Source: Nitrosopumilaceae archaeon (GTDB lineage Archaea > Thermoproteota > Nitrososphaeria > Nitrososphaerales > Nitrosopumilaceae). From it: 64,000 nt of DNA. Below, piece after piece: positions 3,689 through 61,416 of this stretch; position 1 is the stretch's first letter, and every line of letters starts with the position of its first letter. The notes under the pieces are model-generated. The model made no database searches and had not been told where the DNA came from. It saw only the letters and a list, made by a program, of their open reading frames with translations. Where the stretch lies: assembly GCA_965214835.1 (NCBI GenBank), contig CBDCCK010000002.1, positions 2,080,001 through 2,144,000 on the forward strand, written 5' to 3'. Position numbers and translations under genes: made by a program.

Positions 3689-3818
3689 GGGGTTGTTTCT
3701 TAATTCCAACTGTCTGACTCGATCTGTATGTTTTTCTGAATTTTCGCCCTTTTGCACGACTGATCCACGTGGCATCTCAACGGTTTTCAGGAATTCTGGC
3801 GAATTAGGAAACAACCCC
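3689..3818. mobile_element. 130-bp MITE (family B)
   Basis: TIR GGGGTTGTTTCTTAATTC/GAATTAGGAAACAACCCC; 9-bp TSD GGTAGGCGC; second copy at 25338. Confidence 0.9.
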
Positions 3819-25337: not shown

Positions 25338-25464
25338 GGGGTTGTTTCCTAACTTCACCTGCCTGACTCAATCTGCATGTTTTTCTGAATTTTCGCCCTT
25401 TTACACGACTGATCCATGTGACATCACAGCGGTTTTCGGGAATTCTGGCGAATTGTGAAACAAC
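25338..25464. mobile_element. MITE family B, degenerate copy
   Basis: Colinear similarity to 3689-3818. Confidence 0.85.
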
Positions 25465-47955: not shown

Positions 47956-48153
47956 CTATCTGTCCTTTTTGTAGCTGTGCTCCCTTTGCAGGTGCGCCCT
48001 CATATCCTCCATGCTTGAGAAGTTTTTGGCACACTCCTTGCAGTCATACGGGCTGTCCTTAAAGTGGACCGCTTGCTTGTGATGCATCAGCTCCTCCTGC
48101 CGTGAGAACCCTGACGCGCACAAGCCACACCGGTGTTTTTTGAAGAGGCCCAT
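47956..48153 (-). CDS. double C2H2 zinc-finger protein
   Basis: Two Cx2C-x12-Hx4H motifs. Confidence 0.85.
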   Translation of the reverse strand: MGLFKKHRCGLCASGFSRQEELMHHKQAVHFKDSPYDCKECAKNFSSMEDMRAHLQREHSYKKDR

Positions 48154-48156
48154 TCC

Positions 48157-48567
48157 CTATCCGTACTTTGCCTTTTGCTCGTCCCAGCACCTTCTGCAGA
48201 GCTGGCCTTCGATCTTCCACTTTGGCTTGGGGTTGTACCGTATCAGCCCCATCTTGCCGCTGCATATTGTGCAAAAGTTCCTTTTCTCGTTGAATCCTGA
48301 CTCTTTTTTATCAAAACACTCCTTGCAGAGTAGCCCATCCATGTCCCACTGCCACCTTGGCTCCCACATGTCTGAGATCTTCTTGGTGGTGCCGCAGACA
48401 ATACAGGGCTGCCTGACCTTGGCCTCGTAGAACTCGTTTGACTTGTCCATGTGGCAGTCCCCGCAGAGCCTTCCATTGATGTTCCACTCCCGCTTGGGCT
48501 TGTGCTTGTGAGTGAGCTCCTTGCTGCATACTGCGCAATATTCCACCTTTTTGCCAAACAGGCCCAT
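48157..48567 (-). CDS. tri-repeat CxxC zinc-binding protein
   Basis: Three CxxC...P..W...G.LCxxC units. Confidence 0.85.
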   Translation of the reverse strand: MGLFGKKVEYCAVCSKELTHKHKPKREWNINGRLCGDCHMDKSNEFYEAKVRQPCIVCGTTKKISDMWEPRWQWDMDGLLCKECFDKKESGFNEKRNFCTICSGKMGLIRYNPKPKWKIEGQLCRRCWDEQKAKYG

Positions 48568-48629
48568 GATATCACTGGCTGGTATTTGATTAAAAATGAT
48601 TCGAGGCAAAAACGGGCGGGATTTGGCGA

Positions 48630-48755
48630 CTAGGATTCGTCAAGAATCTTCTCGATTGCCTGGCTTGCGTTTAGCATGCCGTGCTCCCTTGCAAATTCCT
48701 CGATGATCCTGTACTGCTCGGTTGTAAAGCAGATCGGCATTGAGCGCTTGTCCAT
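48630..48755 (-). CDS. small ribbon-helix-helix-like protein
   Basis: 41 aa: MDKRSMPICFTTEQY..IEEFA...ASQAIE. Confidence 0.65.
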   Translation of the reverse strand: MDKRSMPICFTTEQYRIIEEFAREHGMLNASQAIEKILDES

Positions 48756-48844
48756 GATGGTAGCAGGGGCTGTTATTTAATATGCCTTCCGATGCTCGTA
48801 GCCTGTTGAACACATGATAAAAACGCCCCCGCCGTAGCCAGGGT

Positions 48845-48955
48845 GATGGATCAACCCCTCGTTATGCATGTGCTTCGCGCACTACCTGTTGAATGGGGAT
48901 ATCCGAGCTGCTGTGTTCCTGTGCTACGCGCACTGATGGATGAATGCAGCTTCTG
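48845..48955 (+). ncRNA. predicted bridge RNA (target and donor loops)
   Basis: Two stem/internal-loop modules whose loop strands match the target and circle junction; conserved in three copies. Confidence 0.8.
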
Positions 48956-48995
48956 ATCTGTCAAACCATATCCGAAAGGAGGTGAAAGAAAAGGA

Positions 48996-50073
48996 TTGAG
49001 AAGCATAGGAATAGACATTGGAAAGAGAAAATGCGCAGTGTGCGTCATCGACGCCAAGGGACACGTGCTAGAGGAGGGCTCGTATAACAACACGTACAAG
49101 GAGGCATCAAAGCTTGCTGCACGACTGAAAAAAGAGTACAAAAAGTGCCAGGCCGCGTGCGAGTCAACGGGCAACATGTGGCTAAAGACGTTCAGGGCGT
49201 TTGAGGATCAGCATATCCCCATACTGCTTGCAAACACCCTCAAGATGAAGATAGTATCAGAGACCAGCGCAAAGACCGACCCGATAGACGCAAGGAAGAT
49301 AGCCGACACGCTCAGGGCCGGAATGATACCACGATGCTACGTGGCATCAGCAGAGCTGAGGGATGTCAGGGAGCTGATGAGGTACAGGATACGGATGGTA
49401 CAGGAGAGGACCGCAGTCATAAACGGGCTGCACAGCTTGGCTTGACAAGTACGACATAGCCATAGATGCATCCACGATGTACTCCAAGAAGGCCATACGG
49501 AAGATCTCCGATACCAGGCTGAACATGCCAAACGATGACAGGATACTGGCAAGCTGCACTAGGAGGATTGCATCAGTTACAGAGGAGATAGACCAAGCAG
49601 GGGAGGACATAGGAAGACAGGCAGGATCGAACGAGGATGCCAAGCTGCTGTTGAGCATGACGGGAATAGACACCTTTGCAGCAATGCTGCTGATAGCAGA
49701 GATCGGCGACATAACCAGATTTCCATCGCCGAACCAGCTTGTGTCCTGGGCCGGCATGTGTCCCCGGGTGTACCAGTCGGGGGATCGCGAGTACTACGGC
49801 CACATGAAAAAGGATGCAAACCGCAGGATCAACTGGCTGATGATCCAGATAGTCAACGTCGCCGTACAGCACGACGACAGGATGAAAGAGTTCTACGAGA
49901 GGGTCCGCAAAAGGAACGGCAACAACCACGTCATAGCGATAACGCATGTTGCAAACAAGATGCTCAGGATAATCTGGCACATGCTGACGACAAAGACTGC
50001 GTATTCATCGCGCAATGCTGTCCTGTACGACAAGAAGATCAAGAGGGTGACAGAACTGGCGGGAACGGCATAG
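48996..50073 (+). pseudogene. IS110 recombinase, one frameshift near 49440
   Basis: GIDIGK, ESTG, KTDPIDA; C-terminal G.CP...QSG. Confidence 0.92.
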
Positions 50074-50254
50074 GATTACCACCTTCCTCCCCCACCCACC
50101 CACCCAATGATCCGCCCGCACCCTGGCAGGTGCGACAGGACTGGCTCGTGCGTATTGCTAGCGTTAGCTATAAAGCACGGCCCGGCCGACTAGGCACGGA
50201 TCAGAAGACGAAAGGAACGTCGCCATGTTACTGGCGGGCGTTTTACCATGGATG

Positions 50255-50640
50255 CATAACTCTGCCTAAAATTTGAAACTTGACCAAAAATCACCCAAAT
50301 TATCAACGGATCCTGACCGAAAAAGTAATGGAATATGAGGATGCCACGTATGGTACTTGACACACACGGACAATGCCAAGTACGGAGGGGGGTAGGCCTA
50401 GTAGTCAAGTACGATCCAGGCTGGGAGAATGATCTCAAGAATGCCAACTGCCACAAGGAGGGTGCCCCGTTCCTGTACGCAGATGGCATGATAATGGTCG
50501 CGGCGGCCCTCAGAACCGCATTCATGATGCCGTACAGGCAGCTGTCAGGCATGATCAGGGAAATGCTAAGGGGCATGGACTCGTCGTGCTATGCCACGAT
50601 ATTTGGGAGGATGCAAAAGCTTGACGTCGACATTGCATAG
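50255..50640 (+). mobile_element. IS903-like remnant whose left TIR is interrupted by IS110 copy 1
   Basis: VRRG...W...KEG.PF.Y...PYRQ..G; GCCTGT-TG-CATAAC reconstitutes the TIR. Confidence 0.8.
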
Positions 50641-50719
50641 TCAACACATAAAAAAAACGGATTGTTTTGACAACTATTTTTGATCCAAAGATCTAAGACT
50701 AGGGGAGCCATACATATGT

Positions 50720-51095
50720 GCATCAAAGCGCAAGCAGAACGAGTTCAAGGAGGCAGCGCAAAAGCTGATCAGGGAAAATACGGCACAAGGGTATACGGTA
50801 CTGGCAGAAGACGAGTCCTCCGTGCAGAAGACCTCGAACAGCCCCAAGCGTGGGTGGACAAAGCGCGGCATGAGCGTCACGGTGCCCTCGTCCCTGTCAC
50901 GGCCGCGCCGGTACATGTTTGGCGTACTGTCAGCTAGTAGACTTTATGCGTAATCGGTTCAGATCTAGGATTATTAGGAACAAATTCATCTCATTCAGGT
51001 CGATTACGCATAAAGTCTAGTGTATTCTACTTTATGTTCTATGACAAGACCAGCACCGACAGCTTTTGCGACTTTTTTGGCAAATGCACACAAGG
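50720..51095 (+). mobile_element. IS630-family remnant
   Basis: AEDES...GW...G...MFGVLS|..FYF.FYDK. Confidence 0.7.
50939..51018. mobile_element. 80-bp MITE of the ISL2-like family
   Basis: TIR AGACTTTATGCGTAATCG/CGATTACGCATAAAGTCT; TSD AGT. Confidence 0.9.
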
Positions 51096-51097
51096 TC

Positions 51098-51148
51098 TGA
51101 TCTACAAGCTTGGCGGTCATTTTACAGGAAGTTTTTTTGGATAGCCCC
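51098..51148 (-). mobile_element. IS5-type left-end fragment
   Basis: Reverse match to 11651-11700. Confidence 0.7.
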
Positions 51149-51228
51149 GGCTGATTTCTGGAAAAATTCCGGATAATGCAAGCTATACTTTTCTGACTGC
51201 AAAGATTTTACGTGGGCAGATCCCAGTC

Positions 51229-51741
51229 ATGCACATGAAAAAGCGCCAGATTGTAGTCATCGGGCACAACGACAACGGCTGTACGCCCGAGCACGAGAGG
51301 ATTGCATATGATACCGGTGTCGAGGTTGCAAAATCCGGCTCGGTCCTAGTTACCGGAGGCCTGGGAGGAGTGATGCGCGCCTCCTGCCATGGTGCATCTG
51401 ATGCAGGGGGCATAACCGTGGGCATACTGCCCCAGGATGATCCCGGCTTTGCCAACGAGTACTGCCAGATTGTAATACCAAGCGGCATGGGGCTGACCCG
51501 GGACTTTCTCAACGCGCTTTCGGCAGACGGCATCATAATCATCGGCGGCGGCTCTGGAACCCTCTCTGAGGTGTGTGCCGCGTACATGCACAAAAAGCCG
51601 ATGGTCGCAATCAGAAACACCGGCGGAACCGCCGACAGGTATGCTGACAGCTATGTCGATCACCGGCAGAATGTGAAGATCATAGGTGTGAGTACGCCAA
51701 AGGAGGCAGTGGAAAAAATCCTGGAACTGATCACTTCATAG
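51229..51741 (+). CDS. TIGR00725/LOG-like Rossmann protein
   Basis: TGGLGGVM, GILP, GGGSGTLSE. Confidence 0.9.
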   Translation: MHMKKRQIVVIGHNDNGCTPEHERIAYDTGVEVAKSGSVLVTGGLGGVMRASCHGASDAGGITVGILPQDDPGFANEYCQIVIPSGMGLTRDFLNALSADGIIIIGGGSGTLSEVCAAYMHKKPMVAIRNTGGTADRYADSYVDHRQNVKIIGVSTPKEAVEKILELITS

Positions 51742-52867
51742 ACTCTAGTAGCGGATCCGGCCTGTAGAACTCGCCGCCTTCCTGTGCAAGCCTGTCCAGC
51801 TCTGCAACGATTCTGCCCATCCCGATCTCCCTTGCCGTCTCAAACAGCGGCCTCTTGAGGCCCAGCCCCAGCCTTGCGGCCATTTCGAGCTCCTCAATGT
51901 CGCTTGCCTTGTTTGTGACCAGCCATGCTGCATTGTTGAGAACATTTGCCACCAGCGGGATGGGGTCGAACTTTCCTGCCAGCTCCTCTGAGAGCCCCAC
52001 CCTCTCATACTTGTCATCAGAGTACCTGTAGAACCCCTCGCCTGATTTCTGGCCCAGCCTCCCATCTTCGAACATCTTCCCGATTGTAGGATGCGGCAGG
52101 ACAACCTTCTTGTCCCTGAGATGCATCTCGGTAGTCGCCTTGTGGATGACGTCCATGCCGGTAAAGTCTGCCAGCTCAAAAACCCCCATCGGGAACCCCA
52201 TCTTGAACTTTACCGCAGAGTCAATCTCCTCCAGGGAGGCGCCCGTCCTGTCCATTGCATAGCATGCCTCGTGGACCATGGGGATAAACAGCCTGTTGAT
52301 TATGAATCCGGGAACGTCCCGCCTGCACAGGACTCCTTGCTTCCCTACGGACTCTACGTACTCCCTTGTCAGCCTGAGCGTCTCCTGGGAGGTCTTTTGG
52401 CCCGGGATGATCTCGACTAGCTTCATCAACTGCGGAGGATTGAAAAAGTGGATTCCGATGAATTTGTCCGGGCGCGAGATCGACTCTGCAATCTCGGTAA
52501 TCGGCAGCGTGCTTGTGTTTGATGCAAAGATCACCCCTTCATCGGATGCCTCGTCTAGCTCCGCATAGACCTTTTTTTTCAGATCCATGATTTCAGGAAC
52601 CACCTCGATTACCATCTCTGTGTCCCTGACTGCCTCCTTGAGATCCACGACCGGCGTTATTCTTCCAAATATTGCGTCTGCCTCGTCCTTTGGGATTTTT
52701 TCCTTTGAGACCATCTTGTCTAGGCTCCACCTGATCTTCTCCATCGCCTTATCCAGGAACTCCTGCCGGATGTCCCGCAGTACCACGTCGTATCCTGCAG
52801 CAGCTGAGACCTGCGCTATTCCGTGTCCCATGACCCCCGAGCCTAGAACCGTGATGCTCTTTACCAT
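51731..52867 (-). CDS. 3-hydroxyacyl-CoA dehydrogenase (likely 3-hydroxybutyryl-CoA, 3HP/4HB cycle)
   Basis: GSGVMG, SNTS, HFFNPP...LVE, GFIINR. Confidence 0.93.
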   Translation of the reverse strand: MVKSITVLGSGVMGHGIAQVSAAAGYDVVLRDIRQEFLDKAMEKIRWSLDKMVSKEKIPKDEADAIFGRITPVVDLKEAVRDTEMVIEVVPEIMDLKKKVYAELDEASDEGVIFASNTSTLPITEIAESISRPDKFIGIHFFNPPQLMKLVEIIPGQKTSQETLRLTREYVESVGKQGVLCRRDVPGFIINRLFIPMVHEACYAMDRTGASLEEIDSAVKFKMGFPMGVFELADFTGMDVIHKATTEMHLRDKKVVLPHPTIGKMFEDGRLGQKSGEGFYRYSDDKYERVGLSEELAGKFDPIPLVANVLNNAAWLVTNKASDIEELEMAARLGLGLKRPLFETAREIGMGRIVAELDRLAQEGGEFYRPDPLLESMK

Positions 52868-53163
52868 AAGTGAGGGATCCTGCCATCCCTTATTATCCTA
52901 TTTGACCGGCGATCCTTGACGTGTTGTCTGAAAACCATGTTCGTTAGTAACTGATGTCCGTCTACATACATTTTGGATCACTTTTTCTGACTGCTTTTGT
53001 GAACAGGCTAGGACACTAGACCTTATGCGTAATCGGTTAAAATCAAAAAAGTCAGGCAGCTTTTACGTCATTTTTGACAAATACACAAAGTATGATGGTA
53101 TCAGAAGGCGGTTGATCCGTTTGCATTCTTGCCAGTTTGACCCAGCTAGGATGCATTTTGCTT

Positions 53164-53255
53164 GTACGAGGCCACCTCTCATTGAGCAAATAGGCGTGAA
53201 TTCGCATGCTGCTGTGATTTTCATGCCTAGCCAGCAATGGGACGTGACCACGTAT
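53164..53255. mobile_element. IS66-like MITE family A
   Basis: GTACGAGGCCAC...GGGACGTGACCACGTAT; TSD not preserved. Confidence 0.75.
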
Positions 53256-53336
53256 GCTGTCCCGTCCGGTTCCTATCCTATAAGCAACCACGTTTAATCC
53301 GCATGGTTTTTAACGGATTTTCAAGCCTAGCTTGGC

Positions 53337-53501
53337 ATGGGGCTGTTTGGACGCAAAAAGGACGACAAGAATACAAAGTGCAAGGAATGTGGGCTGGATC
53401 TGCCCACCCCCGAAAGGCTTGAAAGGCACATGAAAAAGGCACACGGAAACATTCCTGAGAAAAAGTTTGATCCAAACCGTGCCGGGGATGGTACCTGGTA
53501 A
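53337..53501 (+). CDS. small C2H2 zinc-finger protein
   Basis: 54 aa with CKECG...LERHMKKAH; stop overlaps the next ATG. Confidence 0.75.
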   Translation: MGLFGRKKDDKNTKCKECGLDLPTPERLERHMKKAHGNIPEKKFDPNRAGDGTW

Positions 53502-53779
53502 TGGATGAGCTAAGCGACGGGAAAAAACACACCCTGATCTTCGGGGGCGCCCTGGTCATTGCGGGCCTAGTTATAGCAACCGTGGTGTTTCCCTTCTGGA
53601 ACCTGATACGCGAGGATGTCTTTGAGGAGGCCGAGATTCTAAAAAACGACGGGGGGATCTGCTATGTGGAGACCTCCGACAAGATCCCAAAGACCATTGA
53701 GGACTGTACCCACATGCCCGGAGACATCGTGGTGGTAAAATACGGCCGGGGACTCGCATGGGCGACCATCGAGCCCTGA
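53501..53779 (+). CDS. membrane-anchored hypothetical protein
   Basis: TM helix plus a small beta domain. Confidence 0.75.
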   Translation: MDELSDGKKHTLIFGGALVIAGLVIATVVFPFWNLIREDVFEEAEILKNDGGICYVETSDKIPKTIEDCTHMPGDIVVVKYGRGLAWATIEP

Positions 53780-53811
53780 ATGCTTAATACCGGACGGCCC
53801 GATCCACCGTC

Positions 53812-54219
53812 ATGGACTGCATATTTTGCAGGATTGCAGGCGGCAAGATTCCTGCAAGGATACTGTACGAATCCAACAGCGTTATGGCGTTTTTGGACGC
53901 GTTTCCACTGGCAAGGGGGCACTCCCTTGTAATTCCCAGGCGGCATTTTGAGAGGATCCAGGACATGCCTCCTGATGTAAGCTCTGCAGTCTTTGAAGTC
54001 GTCCGCAGGTTGGCATCCGGGGTTGATGCCGTTGCCGGCTCCACGCTGGTCGCTGTCCATAACGGACGGGGAAGCGGCCAGGAGGTTCCTCACGTCCACG
54101 TACACCTGATTCCCAGGGGACCTGATGATGGTGCAGGCACGGTGCACACCATGTTCAAAAACAGCGTCGAGCTAGATGACTCTGACCTTGCCTGCATCCA
54201 GGATGCCCTGAGGCTCTAG
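53812..54219 (+). CDS. HIT-family hydrolase
   Basis: CIFC, GH.LVIP, HVHVHLIP. Confidence 0.95.
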   Translation: MDCIFCRIAGGKIPARILYESNSVMAFLDAFPLARGHSLVIPRRHFERIQDMPPDVSSAVFEVVRRLASGVDAVAGSTLVAVHNGRGSGQEVPHVHVHLIPRGPDDGAGTVHTMFKNSVELDDSDLACIQDALRL

Positions 54220-54881
54220 TGCGGGTATAGACGTTCCCTGGTGTCGCTGTTTTTGACGTTTATGGCTCTGGTCGGGCATGTCTCTGCTGCATTCATGATC
54301 TTGTTGATGCCCGCGCCCCGTCTGTTGATTACCCTGGATTTCGGGTTGGTTTGGGACTTTTTATCGATGTGAAAGACCTCTGGCGCGATGATCTCGCAGC
54401 TGCAGCACCCTATGCACAGGCTGGGATCCACGTCCACCAGCAGATCCGGCTGCTCCTTGGGCTCCTTTGTCTTGTCAAACTCCCCGTTTTGCCCGTCTGC
54501 ATTTACGGTCCTGTCGTACTCATCCCAGAACTTTCTTTCGTATTCTTTCCACCACTCGGGGTCTCCCTCCTCGAACCCCCGTGTGAACTTGCCCCAGTCC
54601 TGCTCCGGGGGATCCCCTCTTGGCGGTGCACCCCACGGTGACTGCGGCTTTGGCCTCCGGCGCGTCTTTTCTGTAGCGGTCGCCTTTTTTCCATTTTTAT
54701 GAAAGTCCTTTAGGACGTTGTAGGCCTCGGTGACCCTCTTGAACTTCATGCCGTCCTTTGACTCCTTGTTTTTATCCGGATGTGACTCTAGGGCCAGCCT
54801 CCTGTATGCGTCTCTGATTTCATCTAGGGTCGCGTCGCTTTGCAGCTGCAACGTCTGGTATGCCTGACTCGTGTTCACCAC
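54216..54881 (-). CDS. DnaJ-domain/ferredoxin fusion
   Basis: HPD motif; CIGCCSC...CP. Confidence 0.92.
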   Translation of the reverse strand: MVNTSQAYQTLQLQSDATLDEIRDAYRRLALESHPDKNKESKDGMKFKRVTEAYNVLKDFHKNGKKATATEKTRRRPKPQSPWGAPPRGDPPEQDWGKFTRGFEEGDPEWWKEYERKFWDEYDRTVNADGQNGEFDKTKEPKEQPDLLVDVDPSLCIGCCSCEIIAPEVFHIDKKSQTNPKSRVINRRGAGINKIMNAAETCPTRAINVKNSDTRERLYPH

Positions 54882-55208
54882 CTTTCCAGTCTTCTTACTG
54901 TTTTAAAAACAATGTCTATTCTACGACCTCCTTGCCCTCGACTATCCACGCCAGCTTGACTATGCATAGAAGCCTTGTCTCTGGCCACCGTAAGGCACAC
55001 AAGGCGGCACCTAGTGCCTTCTATCCTACCGTTCTTGCCGTCATGTAGGACTCGGCCGTGCTGGTGCCCGGCCTCCTGTGTCATACCTTGTGGGTCATCT
55101 TCGGTAAGAGCTTGCACGCTCCAAAAGACACAGCGTGATGGGCAGGTGATCAAGGGTTTTGTCTTGGCATCAAAAACTATTGGGCTGCTCACCTCCATAG
55201 ATCTAGCT

Positions 55209-55299
55209 GTACGAGGTCACCTACCCCACAAATCAGGCACGAATTGGCATGTACAATTGTGATTTCCATGCCTAGCCAGCAAGGGACGTGACCACATAC
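55209..55299. mobile_element. IS66-like MITE family A
   Basis: TIR GTACGAGGTCAC/GTGACCACATAC; 8-bp TSD ATCTAGCT. Confidence 0.9.
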
Positions 55300-55476
55300 A
55301 TCTAGCTGATCAGAAAAACCACACAACATCAGATCCTCAACTCTCTAGGCGTAAAACATTCATCCAAATTTCCTGTTCACGCCTGATTTTACGGATGATC
55401 TGACGTTGTACAATCATTATAAGATACTAGCCTTCTGCGTCCTCAAACCCCCCAATACCGCCTATTGACAGCCTTT

Positions 55477-55935
55477 TCATTTTATGATGCCTGTCGCTCT
55501 GCCCTTGAAGTCAGACTCATACCATGTCGTCTTGTACTCTGCGTTTTTTCTAGGCGGGATGTTGACTGCAATGTGCGCAAAGGTCTTCCGGGTGCTCGTA
55601 GAGCCATGCGTGTGCAGCTGCCTTGCGGGGATGTATGCTGTGTCTCCTTTTTTTAGCGAGATTTTCTGCGTCCTTTTGATGCCAAAGCTGTCATTTTTAC
55701 CCCCATGCCTTTTGAACAGCTCCAGGCTACCTGGGCCCTCTGTTACAATGAGAACTTGGCCACCGTTGTGCCAGTGAAGCTTGGTCCTTGAACCCTTTTC
55801 AAAGTAAACGTGGTACATCTTATGCTCGGTGATTTTCAGCGCCTCTCCGATATCCCTCATGCGTGTCTTTGCAGTAAACCAGTCCGGATTGATTCTTCTC
55901 TGACTTCCTCCTGCGTAAATATTGATTTTGTCCAT
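55477..55935 (-). CDS. cupin-domain protein
   Basis: HWH..GQ.L.V..G, GD...IP....HTHG. Confidence 0.9.
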   Translation of the reverse strand: MDKINIYAGGSQRRINPDWFTAKTRMRDIGEALKITEHKMYHVYFEKGSRTKLHWHNGGQVLIVTEGPGSLELFKRHGGKNDSFGIKRTQKISLKKGDTAYIPARQLHTHGSTSTRKTFAHIAVNIPPRKNAEYKTTWYESDFKGRATGIIK

Positions 55936-55987
55936 AATCTAAGCACATGCATGTATGTGATATACTTAGCTATATACTCGGTTTTCC

Positions 55988-57439
55988 CATCTATGTTAAA
56001 ACGCCCGGGCCCTTTAGCGGTGGCAAGCTGTGTCTCTCTGATCCACGCCTAGTTTGATATGGGCCGCCTTATGGCTTACGCTGGGTACAGGGGTCTGTTC
56101 CCCGTGTGGGAATGGTGCGCATTACTTTGCTGTCTTCTTCCCAGCCTCGGATGGCGGCTCGGATGCTGCTGCAGTAGTAACAGCGGCAGTAGCAGCAGCC
56201 TCTGCCCTGTCCATCTTGAGGCCGTACGTCCTGGGATCGTGTCCGGAGTATGGCGTCTTTGTCACGAGCATGGACCAGATGATCCTGATCATCTTGGTTG
56301 CCACGTACGTCCTGGCCACCATGGACCTTGCGCTGCTCCTCTTCTTGGATCCTGCATGGATCCTTCCCATCCTCTCGTCGTATATGGCAGCCGTCCGCGC
56401 AGCCTGAAGCATCGCCCGGTTGCACCTGTGGTTGGATGTCTTTCTCATCTTGCCGCAGTACTCCCTGTCGCCGGACTGGTGGACGGTCGGACACATGCCG
56501 AACCACGCAACAAGCTTGCCCGGGGTCTTGAATCTGCCAGTATCTCCGATCTCGGAGACCAGCAGCATGGCCGCGAGTCGATCCCCGGAATGCTCATCGG
56601 GATCCTCGCATCCTCGCTGGCGCCGGCCTGTGCGGCTATCTTCGTCTCGATGTCTGCAATCTCCTCCGTGGGCTGCCTGACCCTTCTGGTATGCGCGCCA
56701 AGAACCGCCCCGTCGTTGGGATCATCAGGTGCCATGTCTGTCAGCTGCCTGAGTCCCTTGTCGGAGTACGCGTGTGACGAGTCGATCCTCTCGTAATACC
56801 TGTCCGGGAGGCCGTGGATCCGGTTGATCACGGCCGTCCTAGCCTGCACGGGGCCGATCCTGCAGCGCATCAGCTCCATGACGCTCCAGAGTCCGGGCGG
56901 TGCCACGTAGCACTTGGGAACCATTCCGGCCCTCAGGGCGTTTGTGAGCCTTCTTGCGTCGATTGGATCAGTCTTTACGTCAATGTCCGAGATTATCCGC
57001 ATCCTGTAGGTGTTGGCAAGCTTGACGGGTATTCCTGCGGACTAGAATGCCTCGTAGGTCTTGAGCCACATGTTGCCTGCGGACTCGCAGACGGCCTGGC
57101 AGTTCCTTCCGTAATTGAGCCTTGTCTTCCTGGCAAACAGGCCCGCCCTCCTTGGAGGTGTTCTCGTATGCCGTCTCTTCTTGGATCCTCTTTTTGTCGT
57201 CCATAATGCACGCTATGCGTTTTCTCTTTCCAATGTCTATTCCTATGCTGCATTACATCTTTTCTCGTCTTCCTTTTTTTGTGGTTCAGAGGCTGCACAC
57301 GTCCATCAGCACGCCGTGGTGCACGAACACTGCAGCTCGGAATTACCGCATTCAGAAGTCAGCGCGCGGGGTGCATGGGAAGACAGCGGTTGATCCACGT
57401 CACCACTGCTACGGGCCCGGGCGTTTTAACCCGTGTTCA
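55988..57439 (-). mobile_element. IS110-family element, copy 2 (multiply frameshifted recombinase ~56122-57253)
   Basis: GIDIGK, ES.G, KTDPIDA, QSG; subterminal IR TTAAAACGCCCGGGCCC; TG core. Confidence 0.9.
57288..57397 (-). ncRNA. predicted bridge RNA of IS110 copy 2
   Basis: Same two-module layout; target-loop strands GTCTTCCCA and ACTTCTG match its own flanks. Confidence 0.7.
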
Positions 57440-58051
57440 AAAGTTCCCCACAAGACGGCTGCAAACTCGAAACGGTTCAAGCAAGGCTGCCTACAGATCC
57501 GCACACATCCATCTGCACCGCCACGAGTCAGTTACTTCTGGGAGGACTGTAGCTTGGTCTGATCAACGCATCTGCGTTTGGAAAACCTTGCGGAATTTTT
57601 AACCACGGTCGATTACGCAAAGTCTACTTTTCACTTAGCTGACTATAGCGTAGCACGCAGCACGGCTATGCCAGCTCCCACCATTAGGACATCCACGGCA
57701 CTTTCCATCATTTTGTCTACTGTGACTTGATTTAAGGTGTAACTCTTGCCGTTTTTCTGTTGTATGATCAAACGAAAGCGGTTCCGGAATTGGTGGGATC
57801 ATGCGACAGGCAAGCACGTACTAGACTTTTGCAGATGTAATTCGTGCCTAAAATCGTAAATCACCCAAGCCCGATCTGCTGCTGATGTGTGATACCACGC
57901 CTCCTTGGTAGCCATGCATGAAAATCAGTTCCATGCAGCTCGTACCTGGTTGCTAGGTGGAATGAGGCCTAGTGCATTTTGGTTAGGAAATTTAGCATTT
58001 TGTCTAAACAAGCAAAGCTGATCCCTATAAGATCACTTTTCACTTAAAACT

Positions 58052-58225
58052 ATGTCCTTCCAAGAACGGCAGCAGATGAGGAGTATAGACGAGCTAATCC
58101 TCCGGGCCACCCCAGAGGAACTCAAGAAAATCCAGGAGCTAGACGTCTCTACCCAGCTTGACGGCAGGTCGTTTTATGATACGTGTGTAGAGTCAAGGGA
58201 ATCCCCACTTGCCAGATCCAAATAG
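58052..58225 (+). CDS. 57-aa hypothetical protein
   Basis: ...ATPEELKKIQELD..TQLDG.SFYD...; below the ORF-track cutoff. Confidence 0.6.
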   Translation: MSFQERQQMRSIDELILRATPEELKKIQELDVSTQLDGRSFYDTCVESRESPLARSK

Positions 58226-58265
58226 CCATTCTTAGTTTAAATGAGGGAATTTCAGCTTCTTGCAT

Positions 58266-59327
58266 ATGTCTGCCACAAAGGCCGTCAAAAAGACTGCCAA
58301 AAAGACGGCAAAAGGCACCGCCAAAAAGACGGCTTCAAAAAGAGTATCCAAGAAGACCAGAGTCGTCTGCATCTCCCACAAGGAGGATGCAGACGGAATC
58401 AGCTCAGCGGCGCTGATCCGCCAGGCGTTTGGTGGCGACTCTATCCTAGTTGACTATCCGGGACAGATGGATGCCATAGAGCAGGTATCTGGAGATGAGA
58501 GGCTAAAGGCACTGTACATCTGTGATCTGGGCCTCAGCAAAAAGAACCAGGACAGGTTCGTCGAGATCATGGCCGGACTTCGCAAGAGGCGCGTTGCAGT
58601 CACATACATTGACCACCATGACATTGATCCTGCAATCGCCAAGCAGCTAGGTGAGATCAAGGTCAGGATGATCCACGACACCGGCGAGTGCACCGCAGTT
58701 CAGGTGTACGACTCGTACAAGTCAAAGCTGAACGAGCACGCCTCGTTTGTTGCAGCCTGTGCCGCAATTACCGACTACATGGAGGACAGGCCAGTTGGCG
58801 CTAGGTTGCTGCAGGTATATGACAGGCAGTTTGCCTTGATCAACGCCACCGTCCTCACATACAACATCGTGGGGCATCAAAAGGACGAGGACTATCTGAT
58901 GTACCTGGTGGGGGAGCTGGCCGACTCTAAATACCCGCACCAGATTCCAAACTCCTTTGAGTTTGCACAAGTCCAGGTGGAGAGACTGGCAGAGGTCATC
59001 GCCAAGGTCAAAAAGGGGATGAAGAGGATGTCGAACCTGGGCCACATGGAGATTCTGGATGCCGGGGCAAGTGGCGCCGTAAACTTTGTGCTCGGCCTGT
59101 CCGGCAAGGACGTCGGGGTCGCCTACAAGGAAAGGGTTGATCACGGAATCTATGCCGTCTCTGTGCGCGGCTCCAAAGGCTGCAGGATCCACCTTGGAAA
59201 GATCGTCAATGTCCTGGCTGCCGATCTGGGTGGCTCCGGCGGCGGCCACGACAGGGCCTGCGGCGCAGTCATCCCAAAGCCCAAAATCAAGACATTCCTG
59301 AGGGAGTTTAACAAAAAGCTGGGATAG
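58266..59327 (+). CDS. DHH/DHHA1 phosphoesterase (RecJ-like)
   Basis: H..DADG, DHH, SVR, GGGH. Confidence 0.92.
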   Translation: MSATKAVKKTAKKTAKGTAKKTASKRVSKKTRVVCISHKEDADGISSAALIRQAFGGDSILVDYPGQMDAIEQVSGDERLKALYICDLGLSKKNQDRFVEIMAGLRKRRVAVTYIDHHDIDPAIAKQLGEIKVRMIHDTGECTAVQVYDSYKSKLNEHASFVAACAAITDYMEDRPVGARLLQVYDRQFALINATVLTYNIVGHQKDEDYLMYLVGELADSKYPHQIPNSFEFAQVQVERLAEVIAKVKKGMKRMSNLGHMEILDAGASGAVNFVLGLSGKDVGVAYKERVDHGIYAVSVRGSKGCRIHLGKIVNVLAADLGGSGGGHDRACGAVIPKPKIKTFLREFNKKLG

Positions 59328-59396
59328 GTGCACTTAATCTGGGGCGCTTTTTTGTTCGGGACTGCAACTGACGCATCGTATGGGGTTTATGCCCTT

Positions 59397-59495
59397 GGAC
59401 AGGCATGCGCTAACCTGCGTGCAAATGTAATCATATTTGGGATTAAAAGTGGGATCAGAGGAATTGCAGGACAGGCATGCGCTAACCTGCGTGCA
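59397..59495. repeat. 27-bp direct repeat, two copies, 72-bp period
   Basis: GGACAGGCATGCGCTAACCTGCGTGCA at 59397 and 59469. Confidence 0.9.
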
Positions 59496-59570
59496 GCTGC
59501 AATCTTTATGTCTGGTCAGTAGGGATGTGGCCTCATACTTGGATAGGCTCTTACCTACAGGCCACGAATA

Positions 59571-60016
59571 GTCTGTTGAGTACATGATAAAAACACCCCA
59601 CTGTAGTCAGGGTGCTGGATCAGCCCCCACCATGCACGTGCTTCGCGCACTATCTGTTGAATGGGGCAGTCAGAGCTGCTGTGTTACTGTGCTTTACGTA
59701 CTGGTAGATGACTGCAGCTTTTGGTACATCAAGACTAGGCGGAAAGAAACCGTCTGCGATGACTCGCCTCCTGTCCCACCACCCATCCAATGATCTGGGA
59801 GGATATGACATGACCGCACTGGGACAAGGCAGGTGCTATTGCATCGTGCAGCCAGCTAGCTGTAAAGTGGGTCACGATCAAGTAGGCATGGATCAGAGGA
59901 AACTAGGAGCATCGTCGTTTCTGCGATGGGTGTTTTTAACATAGATGCATAACCATGATTTTAGGCACAAAAGATCAGTCACCTTTGCGTGTTCAGGCAC
60001 GGCTATGCAACAAGCG
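59571..60016. mobile_element. IS903-like MITE hosting the IS110 mini-element
   Basis: GTCTGT-TG-CATAACC ... GGCTATGCAACAAGC. Confidence 0.7.
59577..59947 (+). mobile_element. non-autonomous IS110 derivative (left and right ends only), copy 3
   Basis: Colinear with both non-coding ends of copy 1, no recombinase ORF; TG cores and subterminal IRs. Confidence 0.88.
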
Positions 60017-60142
60017 TAAGGTGCGAGATCATGCCTCCACTATGAATCGATAAACGTTGATGCCTGTACCTGTAAGCGCACGTACGATATTCCGGTATGC
60101 ATACCTGCCAATACGGATATACAAGTAGGCGGGTCGGACGAC

Positions 60143-60700
60143 ATGACGGTTCGGCCGCAGGTACCAGTAGAGCCCCCGACTCCGGTTCTGCAGCCTGAGC
60201 CCGAGCCGGAACCAGAACCTGAACCCGAGCCACAGGTGCCTGTCGAGCCCCAGACCTCGGTACAACCGGATCCTAGGCCCCATGCCGCCTCGGAACCGGG
60301 AGGCACATGCCTGATAGCGACTGCCGCATACGGGATCAAGCTGGCGCCGCAGGTGCAGGCACTCGGAGATACGCGACAGTGCACTGCTCTCGACGGGCTC
60401 GGGCGCCTCCTTTGTTGCTGGATTCAACTCCATATACTATTCGTTCTCGTCGGCAGTAGCCGGCCTGGAGAGCCAGAACCCGGCATTTCGCGAGGCCGTA
60501 AGGGTGCTTGTGACCTCAATGATATCGACGCTGTCGATAATGTCGCTTGCTGAGGAGGGCTCAGATGCATCGGTACTGGCGCTGGGAGCCTCAGTTTGCC
60601 CTCAATATCGGCATGTGTGTAGCAGTGCCTGCAGCCGCCATCGTGGCTGTCCGGCGGCTGCGGGACTAAAGTCTGCCGATCACCGAACGGTATGGGTGCA
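60143..60700 (+). pseudogene. surface-protein C-terminal remnant (PE-rich linker, CFI-box-CTERM-like)
   Basis: PEPEPE..GGTCLIATAAYG..LAPQVQ followed by frameshifts. Confidence 0.8.
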
Positions 60701-60963
60701 TTGCATCCTCTGCAAAGAAAAACAATGCATAAAGAGAATCGTTTTGCACTATTTTGATGCCTTGTGCTAGAAGATGGCTTGCTAGAGCCTCCAATACAAT
60801 CCTCCCACGTCTGTACCACATTCAAAACGGTGATGCCTAAAAAAACATCCAGACTGCGTTTTTGCATCGCCACTAGGCGGATGCTCCTGGCACCTTTCAG
60901 AGAAATCTGACCGGGCCCAGACATGTGCCGTTTTGGCAGCGCAGCTCCCTGCCCGGATCGCGT

Positions 60964-61416
60964 TTATTCTACCTCGACTATGGCATCAATCTCTGTCATT
61001 GAATCAAGCGGCAGGCTGGCAACCCCCACTGCGATTCTGGAGTGCCTTGCGGCCTCCCCGAACACATCAAACAGGAGGTCCGATGCTGCGTTGATCACCT
61101 TTGGATGCTGGCAAAACTCCGGATCCGAGTTTACAAACCCCGAAATCCTGACTATCTGTCTTACTTTGTCTAGGCTTCCAAGGTTTGCCTTTAGCTGGGA
61201 CAGGATGTTTATGGCGCAAATCCTTGCAGACCTTCTTGCATCCTCGATATTCTCATCGGTGACCTTTCCTGCAAATGCAACTCTTCCGTCCTGTAGCGGT
61301 ATCTGTCCTGACAAAAACACCAGATTCCCGACCCTGACGGCCGGAACGTAAGAGCCTGCAGGCGCGGGAGGGACAGGCAGTACAATTCCCAGCTCTGATA
61401 TCTTTTTCTCATACAT
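60964..61416 (-). CDS. RidA/YjgF-family protein
   Basis: YVP, SGQIP, N.AS, HSR.A.GV..LP. Confidence 0.92.
   Translation of the reverse strand: MYEKKISELGIVLPVPPAPAGSYVPAVRVGNLVFLSGQIPLQDGRVAFAGKVTDENIEDARRSARICAINILSQLKANLGSLDKVRQIVRISGFVNSDPEFCQHPKVINAASDLLFDVFGEAARHSRIAVGVASLPLDSMTEIDAIVEVE

Follow-up and report, generated by a model that had tools for sequence, protein, structure and literature searches.

The locus studied here raises the question of what a gene-less stretch of some 370 bp, bounded by the ends of an IS110-family insertion sequence, represents in the genome of a Nitrosopumilaceae archaeon. An earlier account made from the letters alone (the sequence-only reading) had taken it for a recombinase-less mini-element that keeps its own guide RNA and is either self-guiding and mobilised in trans or acts as a free-standing cassette for the guide. 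One lone copy with a deletion of its own would instead speak for a full element that decayed in place. The window is the whole 64,000-nucleotide stretch that was analyzed, and unprefixed coordinates refer to it. The element, M1, and its surroundings are laid out as follows.

59579..59947, + strand: mini-element M1, 369 bp including the right-hand TG core, collinear with M2-M4 and with the minis of genome G002
59569..59578, + strand: left part of the target, TAGTCTGTTG, the first 10 nt of a ~80-bp palindromic repeat; LT at 59572-59576, core TG at 59577-59578
59584..59598, + strand: left subterminal inverted repeat, ATGATAAAAACACCC
59729..59775, + strand: deletion junction, which fuses a remnant of the ribosome-binding region, GGCGGAAAGAAACC, to the final ~10 codons of the recombinase gene that was lost
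59776..59945, + strand: right end, with a TATAAAG-like box (TGTAAAG in M1), the block GGCATGGATCAGAGG, a terminal hairpin (CATCGTCG..TGCGATG, then T5) and the right subterminal repeat at 59928-59942
59946..60017, + strand: right core TG (59946-47), RT CATAAC (59948-53) and the remainder of the target repeat, which ends in GGCTATGCAACAAGCGTA

The subterminal inverted repeats of M1 are 15 bp long and identical at 14 of the 15 positions, and TG is present at both junctions (59577-78 and 59946-47). The sequence-only reading had listed both non-coding ends, the inverted repeats, the TG cores and the lack of an ORF, and each of these was confirmed for M1. The short strings on which it relied also lie where it had placed them: the left flank GTCTGTTG at 59571-59578 with TCTGTTG at 59653-59659, the right-end ATAGATG at 59941-59947 with the internal TAGATG at 59705-59710, and, in the full-length copy at 48809-50254 that it called copy 1, the counterparts GCCTGTTG/CCTGTTG and ATGGATG/ATGGATG.

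The search for coding capacity revealed no Pfam match at E ≤ 0.1 for the three longest mechanical ORFs of M1 (69, 78, and 53 aa), and no open frame is conserved across 10 mini copies, whose longest frames vary in strand and position. The recombinase ORF with the DEDD_Tnp_IS110 and Transposase_20 domains is absent; M1 is therefore an IS110-family derivative and not an autonomous member. Contigs from four DNA runs of one study cover M1 with 0 differences and no joint, although such contigs are blind to rare empty-site variants.

Two full-length relatives lie in the same window.

48809..50254, + strand: full-length A-type copy F1, with the left end and its bridge RNA at 48809-48995, a recombinase that a 1-nt insertion divides between ORFs 48996-49445 (DEDD_Tnp_IS110) and 49477-50073 (Transposase_20), and the right end next
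55988..57439, - strand: C-family IS110 relative, ~65% identical to F1, with a broken recombinase gene

The left end of M1 is 81.5% identical to that of F1 over 157 nt, and the right ends of the two are ~70% identical. The Pfam domains of F1, DEDD_Tnp_IS110 and Transposase_20, were found with E values of 1e-29 and 6e-25. The right end of the C-family relative (AACATAGATG) is the same as that of the minis. Many IS copies in the genome are degenerate. An intact recombinase elsewhere in the genome, which the sequence-only reading had wished to see, was found in F10, with a 378-aa ORF that carries the two Pfam domains of the family, as identified in the split copy F1, and whose similarity to the IS621 and ISCro4 bridge recombinases is weak but significant (E about 1e-8). 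Three further open IS110-type frames of 368-394 aa exist in the genome, so that a source of enzyme in trans is present.

The window's own genome (G000, 3.2 Mb) has a TBP gene, which marks it as archaeal. Copies of the mini occur at seven places in it: four are complete (M1, M2 at 639,981, M3 at 2,955,990, and M4 at 3,124,531), M5 and M6 are 3'-truncated, and M7 is a right-end fragment. No continuation of M5 or M6 past inserted or unrelated DNA was found within ~0.9 kb. The congeneric genome G002 holds three complete minis and one that is 5'-truncated. Among the 60 related genomes searched, the whole mini was matched in G002 only, and four others matched the bridge-RNA part alone. A pattern scan of genome contigs gave four stretches, three of them in contigs of an "uncultured Nitrosopumilaceae archaeon" MAG; judged by contig number and position, these three appear to correspond to the minis of G002. 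The fourth was discarded as a 24-nt chance match in an unrelated low-GC contig. The metagenome scan with a 22-nt mini-specific pattern returned 0 matches.

One deletion junction is common to all 10 aligned mini copies, and none of the G000 and G002 sites are orthologous. The same ORF-less layout is thus found at seven places in one genome and four in the other, with unrelated flanks, which bears out the proposal of a mini-element over one of decay in situ; the additional copies with the same internal deletion at distinct sites leave no room for the single-copy case. The family resembles MITEs in being short, in lacking a transposase gene, in having the same structure at several loci and in having related ends in the genome. 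Pairwise identity of the complete minis is 78.6–89.6%, with no pair above 90%, and M1 is the most diverged (79.5–84.3% to the others, or 79–84% in round figures). With no near-identical pair, the mini family shows every appearance of being old and no sign of recent movement. Mini left ends are 81–98% identical to those of B-type full copies. Mini right ends are just 58–69% identical to the right ends of the full copies in hand, which indicates that the true parent is not among them.

The left end that the minis retain contains the following RNA features, given here for M1.

59616..59728, + strand: bridge RNA core, with closing helix H2 (59616-22 with 59722-28) around two guide loops
59624..59666, + strand: target-binding loop, stem CCCC/GGGG
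59628-59637, + strand: 5' strand of the target loop, RTG plus core, the reverse complement of the right flank
59638-59650, + strand: target-loop hairpin, followed at 59651-59661 by the 3' strand, LTG TCTGT + TG + AA
59674..59719, + strand: donor-binding loop, stem AGCTGC/GCAGCT
59680-59688, + strand: 5' strand of the donor loop (RDG), followed by a hairpin at 59689-59701
59702-59713, + strand: 3' strand of the donor loop, LDG GTAGA + TG + AC

In M1 the helices pair at 6 of 7 positions (H2), 4 of 4 (H3), 4 of 4 (H4), 6 of 6 (H5), and 4 of 4 (H6). The fold was tested on 36 aligned left ends from the A, B, and C full-length families, the minis, and relatives from four other genomes. RNAalifold alone recovered two helices only, so the structure was specified by hand and then tested; it has 32 pairs in six helices, arranged as a weaker 5' hairpin and then the closing helix around two stem/internal-loop/hairpin modules. 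Standard pairs occupied 90.9% of the cells, against 30–48% with the partners slid by 1–3 columns, and 11 pairs change on both sides across the 36 left ends. Folding of single sequences recovered the two-loop shape, with unremarkable stability z-scores of +0.13 (M1) and -0.99 (F1). The Rfam search (evalue mode, window 48000-61000) gave no match, and hence no curated family covers this RNA.

Among nine minis, the per-column difference was 7.8% in stems H2–H6, 18.6% in other unpaired columns, and 29–30% in the two target-guide strands. Conserved stems with varying target guides are the pattern expected of a working bridge RNA that is being re-aimed. Exchange of left ends with full copies could, however, mimic conservation of the mini RNA, since the left ends are so much closer to those of full copies (81–98%) than the right ends are (just 58–69%).

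A TATA-like ATAAAAA lies inside the left subterminal repeat, about 26 nt upstream of H2, and from the usual archaeal promoter geometry it is a candidate promoter of the bridge RNA. At the other end, most of the aligned A, B, C, and mini copies retain a TATAAAG box ~95 nt from the terminus. The right end (window 59830-59945 in M1) also has a terminal hairpin in which compensatory changes occur, with T4–T5 after it. A further right-end block, which reads ATGGATCAGAAG or, in family C, GTGGATCAGAGA, can pair with the 3' strand of the closing helix and co-varies with it.

The guide code was read from the loops and their flanks. In top-strand sense, the 3' strand of the target loop is LT(5)+TG+AA. 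The 5' strand gives TG+RT(6) in reverse complement, and the single base after it agrees with the final base of the right end. By the same logic, the donor loop reads RE(5)+TG+AA plus the first six LE bases. The families differ correspondingly in loops and flanks (A: CCTGT-TG-CATAAC; B: GTAGT-TG-AAAATG; C: ACTTC-TG-GGAAGA). Across 38 elements with 29 distinct guide/flank pairs, the 5-nt left guide of an element agreed with the element's own flank at 3.66 of 5 positions on average. When the guide was a different one, the mean was 2.0 of 5, and 0 of 20000 permutations gave a value as large as the real one. On the donor side, the loop and the RE-LE junction of A and B copies both read ATGGA-TG-AA, and ATAGA-TG is found in both loop and RE of C1 and M3, and in the loop of M5, whose RE end is lost. 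TG occurs at both junctions in all eight A copies, M1, M3, and M4.

The 13-mers predicted by the loops were then counted in the genome as uninterrupted sites (k-mer count). The numbers of exact sites and of sites with ≤1 mismatch were 4 and 30 for A, 9 and 30 for F4/M2, 23 and 40 for B, 61 and 108 for C, and 2 and 24 for M3; shuffled 13-mers averaged about 0.05 exact and about 3 with ≤1 mismatch. TAGnnTGTTG precedes all eight A-type full copies, and uninterrupted sites TAGYYTGTTGCATAAC number 25 in the genome. The empty target sites are the termini of other small repeats, among them MITE X and the ~80-bp palindromic repeat, whose terminus is the standard target of the A-type full copies.

MITE X is ~124 bp long and has terminal repeats GGGGTTGTCGCCTAATTC, 8–9-bp target duplications, and >100 copies (117 BLAST hits), for example at G000:C2 640365, 3124150, and 2955612 and in the window near 3689-3808 and 25338-25454. 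M2, M3, M4, M7, G2b, and F9 have the X terminal repeat as their target or right flank, and one stands directly after each of the truncated copies M5 and 2928840. Two left-end fragments, G000:C2 504085-504223 and 685685-685825 (L060), end exactly after the donor-loop LDG plus core (GATGGATG and GATAGATG), and both go on with GTACGAG. Since the donor-guide DNA resembles a right end, it may itself act as a recombination site.

We then asked whose guide had placed each mini. The loop of M1 matches its own flanks at 5 of 5 LT and 3 of 6 RT positions (8/11), whereas the loops of A-type copies, F4, and M2 match them at 4 of 5 and 6 of 6 (10/11). On the donor side, the LDG agrees with the right end (ATAGA-TG) in the core and in 4 of the 5 bases before it. 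M1 begins with AGTACA where the family has AACACA, a drift that leaves a 4 of 7 match to M1's own RDG. The sequence-only reading had noted partial matches for the remaining two guide strands, and this was accurate (RTG 3/6, RDG 4/7). No exact site for the 13-mer target predicted by M1 was found in the genome and only one with ≤1 mismatch, where the shuffled mean was 4.1. The single-base differences said to track the guide of M1 are real at both ends, but the left-flank position is mismatched as well in the full copies F3 and F5, which carry the standard guide; the variable LT position therefore tolerates mismatch. M1 could have been placed by either guide, its own or the A-type one. The label "self-guiding" is borne out only in part: in M1 the full-length A-type guide fits the flanks better and the element's own target is absent, and the best case for the label is M3.

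The loop of M3 predicts GAGGT-TG-TCGCGT, and M3 sits in the X terminal repeat GGGGT-TG-CTGCGT, the general form of which is GGGGT-TG-(C/T)(T/C)GC(G/C)TAA. Of 15 guides compared, its own loop gives the best fit to its flanks. Loops like it occur in no recombinase-encoding copy of the genome, and similar ones are found only in two recombinase-less left-end fragments. Overall, four of the nine minis fit their own left guide at 4–5 of 5 positions, including M2 (5/5) and G2b (4/5, with the unusual C beside the core shared). M4, M6, and G2a fit theirs at 2 of 5; the M4 flank fits the F4/M2-type guide at 5 of 5, and the M6 flank the B-type guide at 5 of 5. From these matches, both cis and trans guidance of the minis seem to have occurred.

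In M2, M4, and G2b the left flank is of one repeat type and the right flank of another, the X terminal repeat. A left flank that fits the guide beside a right flank that does not was also seen in F9, F11, and C1, and in F11 the left flank fits the B-family guide, its own guide being deleted. Such one-sided matches could result from half-matched insertion or from a recombinase-mediated adjacent deletion. A reciprocal junction of an X-by-P exchange (GGGGTTGCATAA), sought as a source of the mixed flanks of M2 and M4, gave 0 matches. "Half-match" recombination by IS621 is reported in a recent preprint (10.64898/2026.08.31.748434); the left-only matches may be its natural counterpart, or else the result of adjacent deletions.

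Taken together, M1 is probably a copy of a MITE-like, non-autonomous family that derives from an archaeal IS110-family (bridge-recombinase) insertion sequence and was moved in trans. The family would have arisen once, when an IS110-family insertion sequence lost almost the whole of its recombinase gene and retained the left end with the complete two-loop bridge RNA, a right end of ~185 bp, the subterminal inverted repeats, and the TG cores. The minis would have been excised and inserted by the recombinase of full-length relatives acting in trans. Their own RNA would have served as guide in some insertions (clearly M3, and possibly M1, M2, and G2b), and the RNA of another element in others (M4, M6). 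What this account does not explain is the mixed flanks of M2, M4, and G2b, which a simple insertion into one target would not leave. That M1 was instead a full-length copy that lost its recombinase gene in place is hardly credible: degenerate IS copies are indeed many in this genome, but an identical junction and a distinct mini-type right end recur in 10 copies with unrelated flanks in two species. Spread of the copies by segmental duplication or by homologous recombination among repeats, with no recombinase-mediated transposition, also seems quite improbable, even in so repeat-dense a genome. M7 shares with M2 its right-end part and >250 bp of right flank at 95% identity and is thus a duplication, and M4 and G2b share an identical right-end/X junction, extra TC included; yet in M1–M4 and G2a–c the likeness ends at the TG cores on the left, and the left flanks, unrelated to one another, read as bridge-RNA guides of this genome predict.

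A different matter is whether M1 is active today, either as an element that guides itself or as a free-standing cassette whose RNA loads onto the recombinase and redirects or titrates it, as the sequence-only reading had offered. All its RNA helices are intact, its left target guide fits the flank at 5 of 5 and its left donor guide the right end at 4 of 5 plus core, and the TATA-like box lies at about 26 nt upstream of the closing helix of the RNA. We nevertheless regard current activity as unlikely, given the 3/6 match of the right target guide, the 4/7 match between AGTACA and the right donor guide, a predicted target with 0 exact sites and one with ≤1 mismatch (below the shuffled mean of 4.1), and a copy that is the most diverged of all, at 79.5–84.3% to the others. 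On the preferred reading of a family mobilised in trans, M1 itself is probably now an immobile, decayed relic of that movement, because drift has affected both the right target guide and the left-end donor site, and the genome lacks the target that its loop predicts.

As far as the published accounts allow comparison, the closest parallel to M1 is MITEPpu9, the A'-ssr9-B' module of ISPpu9, an IS110-family element of Pseudomonas putida KT2440 (PMC12288879). It is transposase-less and bounded by IS-end boxes, it forms minicircles, and its authors propose that it moves by a transposase supplied in trans (PMC12288879). It resembles the minis in having no transposase, a small-RNA gene inside, and separate chromosomal sites in repeats, and it differs from them in being bacterial, in having ends that are short boxes of 43 and 16 bp, and in lying behind a tnp gene in 5 of 8 copies (PMC12288879). 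Its RNA, Ssr9, is described as an antisense-RNA partner and not as a bridge RNA (PMC12288879), whereas the minis keep the whole two-loop bridge RNA. The target loops of the minis differ between copies. This comparison with MITEPpu9 is one of published descriptions.

IS621 and the IS110 group resemble the elements studied here in that the left end encodes the RNA, ahead of the recombinase gene, and in that they insert into repeats (PMC11208160, PMC11208158). IS621 likewise includes the core in each pairing and has handshake-like extra 1–2 nt that fit the post-exchange partner (PMC11208160, PMC11208158), and the strand logic of our guide code is the one defined for it (PMC11208160). The order of strands differs: the target loop of IS621 runs stem, LTG, stem loop, RTG (PMC11208160, PMC11208158), and in our elements it starts with RTG. 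They also have a TG core in place of CT, and 15-bp subterminal inverted repeats. M1, unlike IS621, also has no recombinase gene.

The RTG-first (and RDG-then-LDG) order, seen in windows 48850-48960 and 59624-59719, matches that of the IS1111-type seekRNAs, and the IS1111 elements described with them (ISEc11, ISPa11, ISKpn4) have subterminal inverted repeats, as here (PMC11187229). Two IS1111 traits, as defined for these groups, were therefore found, namely subterminal inverted repeats of 7–17 bp and a top-strand complement before the bottom-strand match (PMC11208160, PMC11187229). By contrast, the RNA of the IS1111 group lies downstream of the transposase gene (PMC11187229), and the elements here have it upstream, in the left end, and not in the right end. 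On account of this mixed IS1111/IS110 anatomy, we placed the elements in neither group.

As reported for the seekRNA system, an engineered mini IS with ends only moved when the transposase and the RNA region were given in trans (PMC11187229); that construct was engineered, and the M1 family is natural. Compact IS110 elements of ~800 bp are described as keeping the recombinase and lacking the 5' UTR (10.64898/2026.08.14.744561). They share with the minis a natural separation of the two components, which implies that the bridge RNA acts in trans, and they are otherwise the mirror image, an enzyme without RNA where the minis are RNA without enzyme (10.64898/2026.08.14.744561). Our literature search, which covered the main texts of papers, revealed no report of natural recombinase-less elements that keep a complete bridge RNA, and no paper joining IS110/IS1111, MITEs, and a transposase in trans. 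What sets the family apart is the archaeal setting, the full bridge RNA, and the copy-specific target loops; the gene-less IS110 module itself has its precedent in MITEPpu9.

Bridge recombinases are under development as programmable tools for genome rearrangement, while work on their natural history is still under way. A natural family with a guide and no enzyme would show that RNA and protein are separable in nature, with the RNA working in trans, and that target loops can diversify on a non-coding hitch-hiker. We tentatively raise the possibility that bridge-RNA modules persist as selfish "guide-only" elements, which express their own RNA, borrow the enzyme, and evolve their own target loops; were this true, the minis would widen the target range of the resident bridge recombinase. 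M3 would be the example, aimed by its predicted guide at the terminal repeat of a MITE with >100 copies, a specificity with no recombinase-encoding bearer in the genome. The subterminal repeats ATAAAAAC and GTTTTTAAC might double as archaeal promoter and oligo-T terminator, and the 370-bp mini might on that account be a complete transcription unit. M1 itself is a modest finding, since it is probably a dead relic. The family nonetheless offers paired natural substrates, since one genome contains the mini donors along with their guides and numerous empty targets; for M3 or M2 as donors, the X terminal repeat or TAGTTTGTTGCATAAC are candidate targets. These substrates suit the testing of cis and trans guide use and of half-matched recombination.

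Several observations were made on the neighboring elements and sequences. An extra base (CAGCTTGGCTTGAC, against CAGCCT-GCTTGAC in F10) was found in 10 of 11 A/B-type full copies, in the window at 49430-49450 and at other sites such as G000:C2 677-679 kb, 1098 kb, and 1836 kb, and it divides the recombinase between a DEDD ORF and a Tnp ORF. Among the frameshifted copies, eight are ~98% identical to each other, so their spread came later than the frameshift. This might be explained by programmed frameshifting, by an enzyme in two parts, or by trans-complementation from F10. Just upstream of M1, in the spacer after a DHH/DHHA1 gene, a 36-bp direct repeat (~92% identical) occupies 59397-59432 and 59469-59504. 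Downstream, window 60143-60600 holds a proline/glutamate-rich repeat ORF (PEPEPE...), where the contigs from the four runs had a far higher summed depth and small indels, which marks it as repeated or variable sequence.
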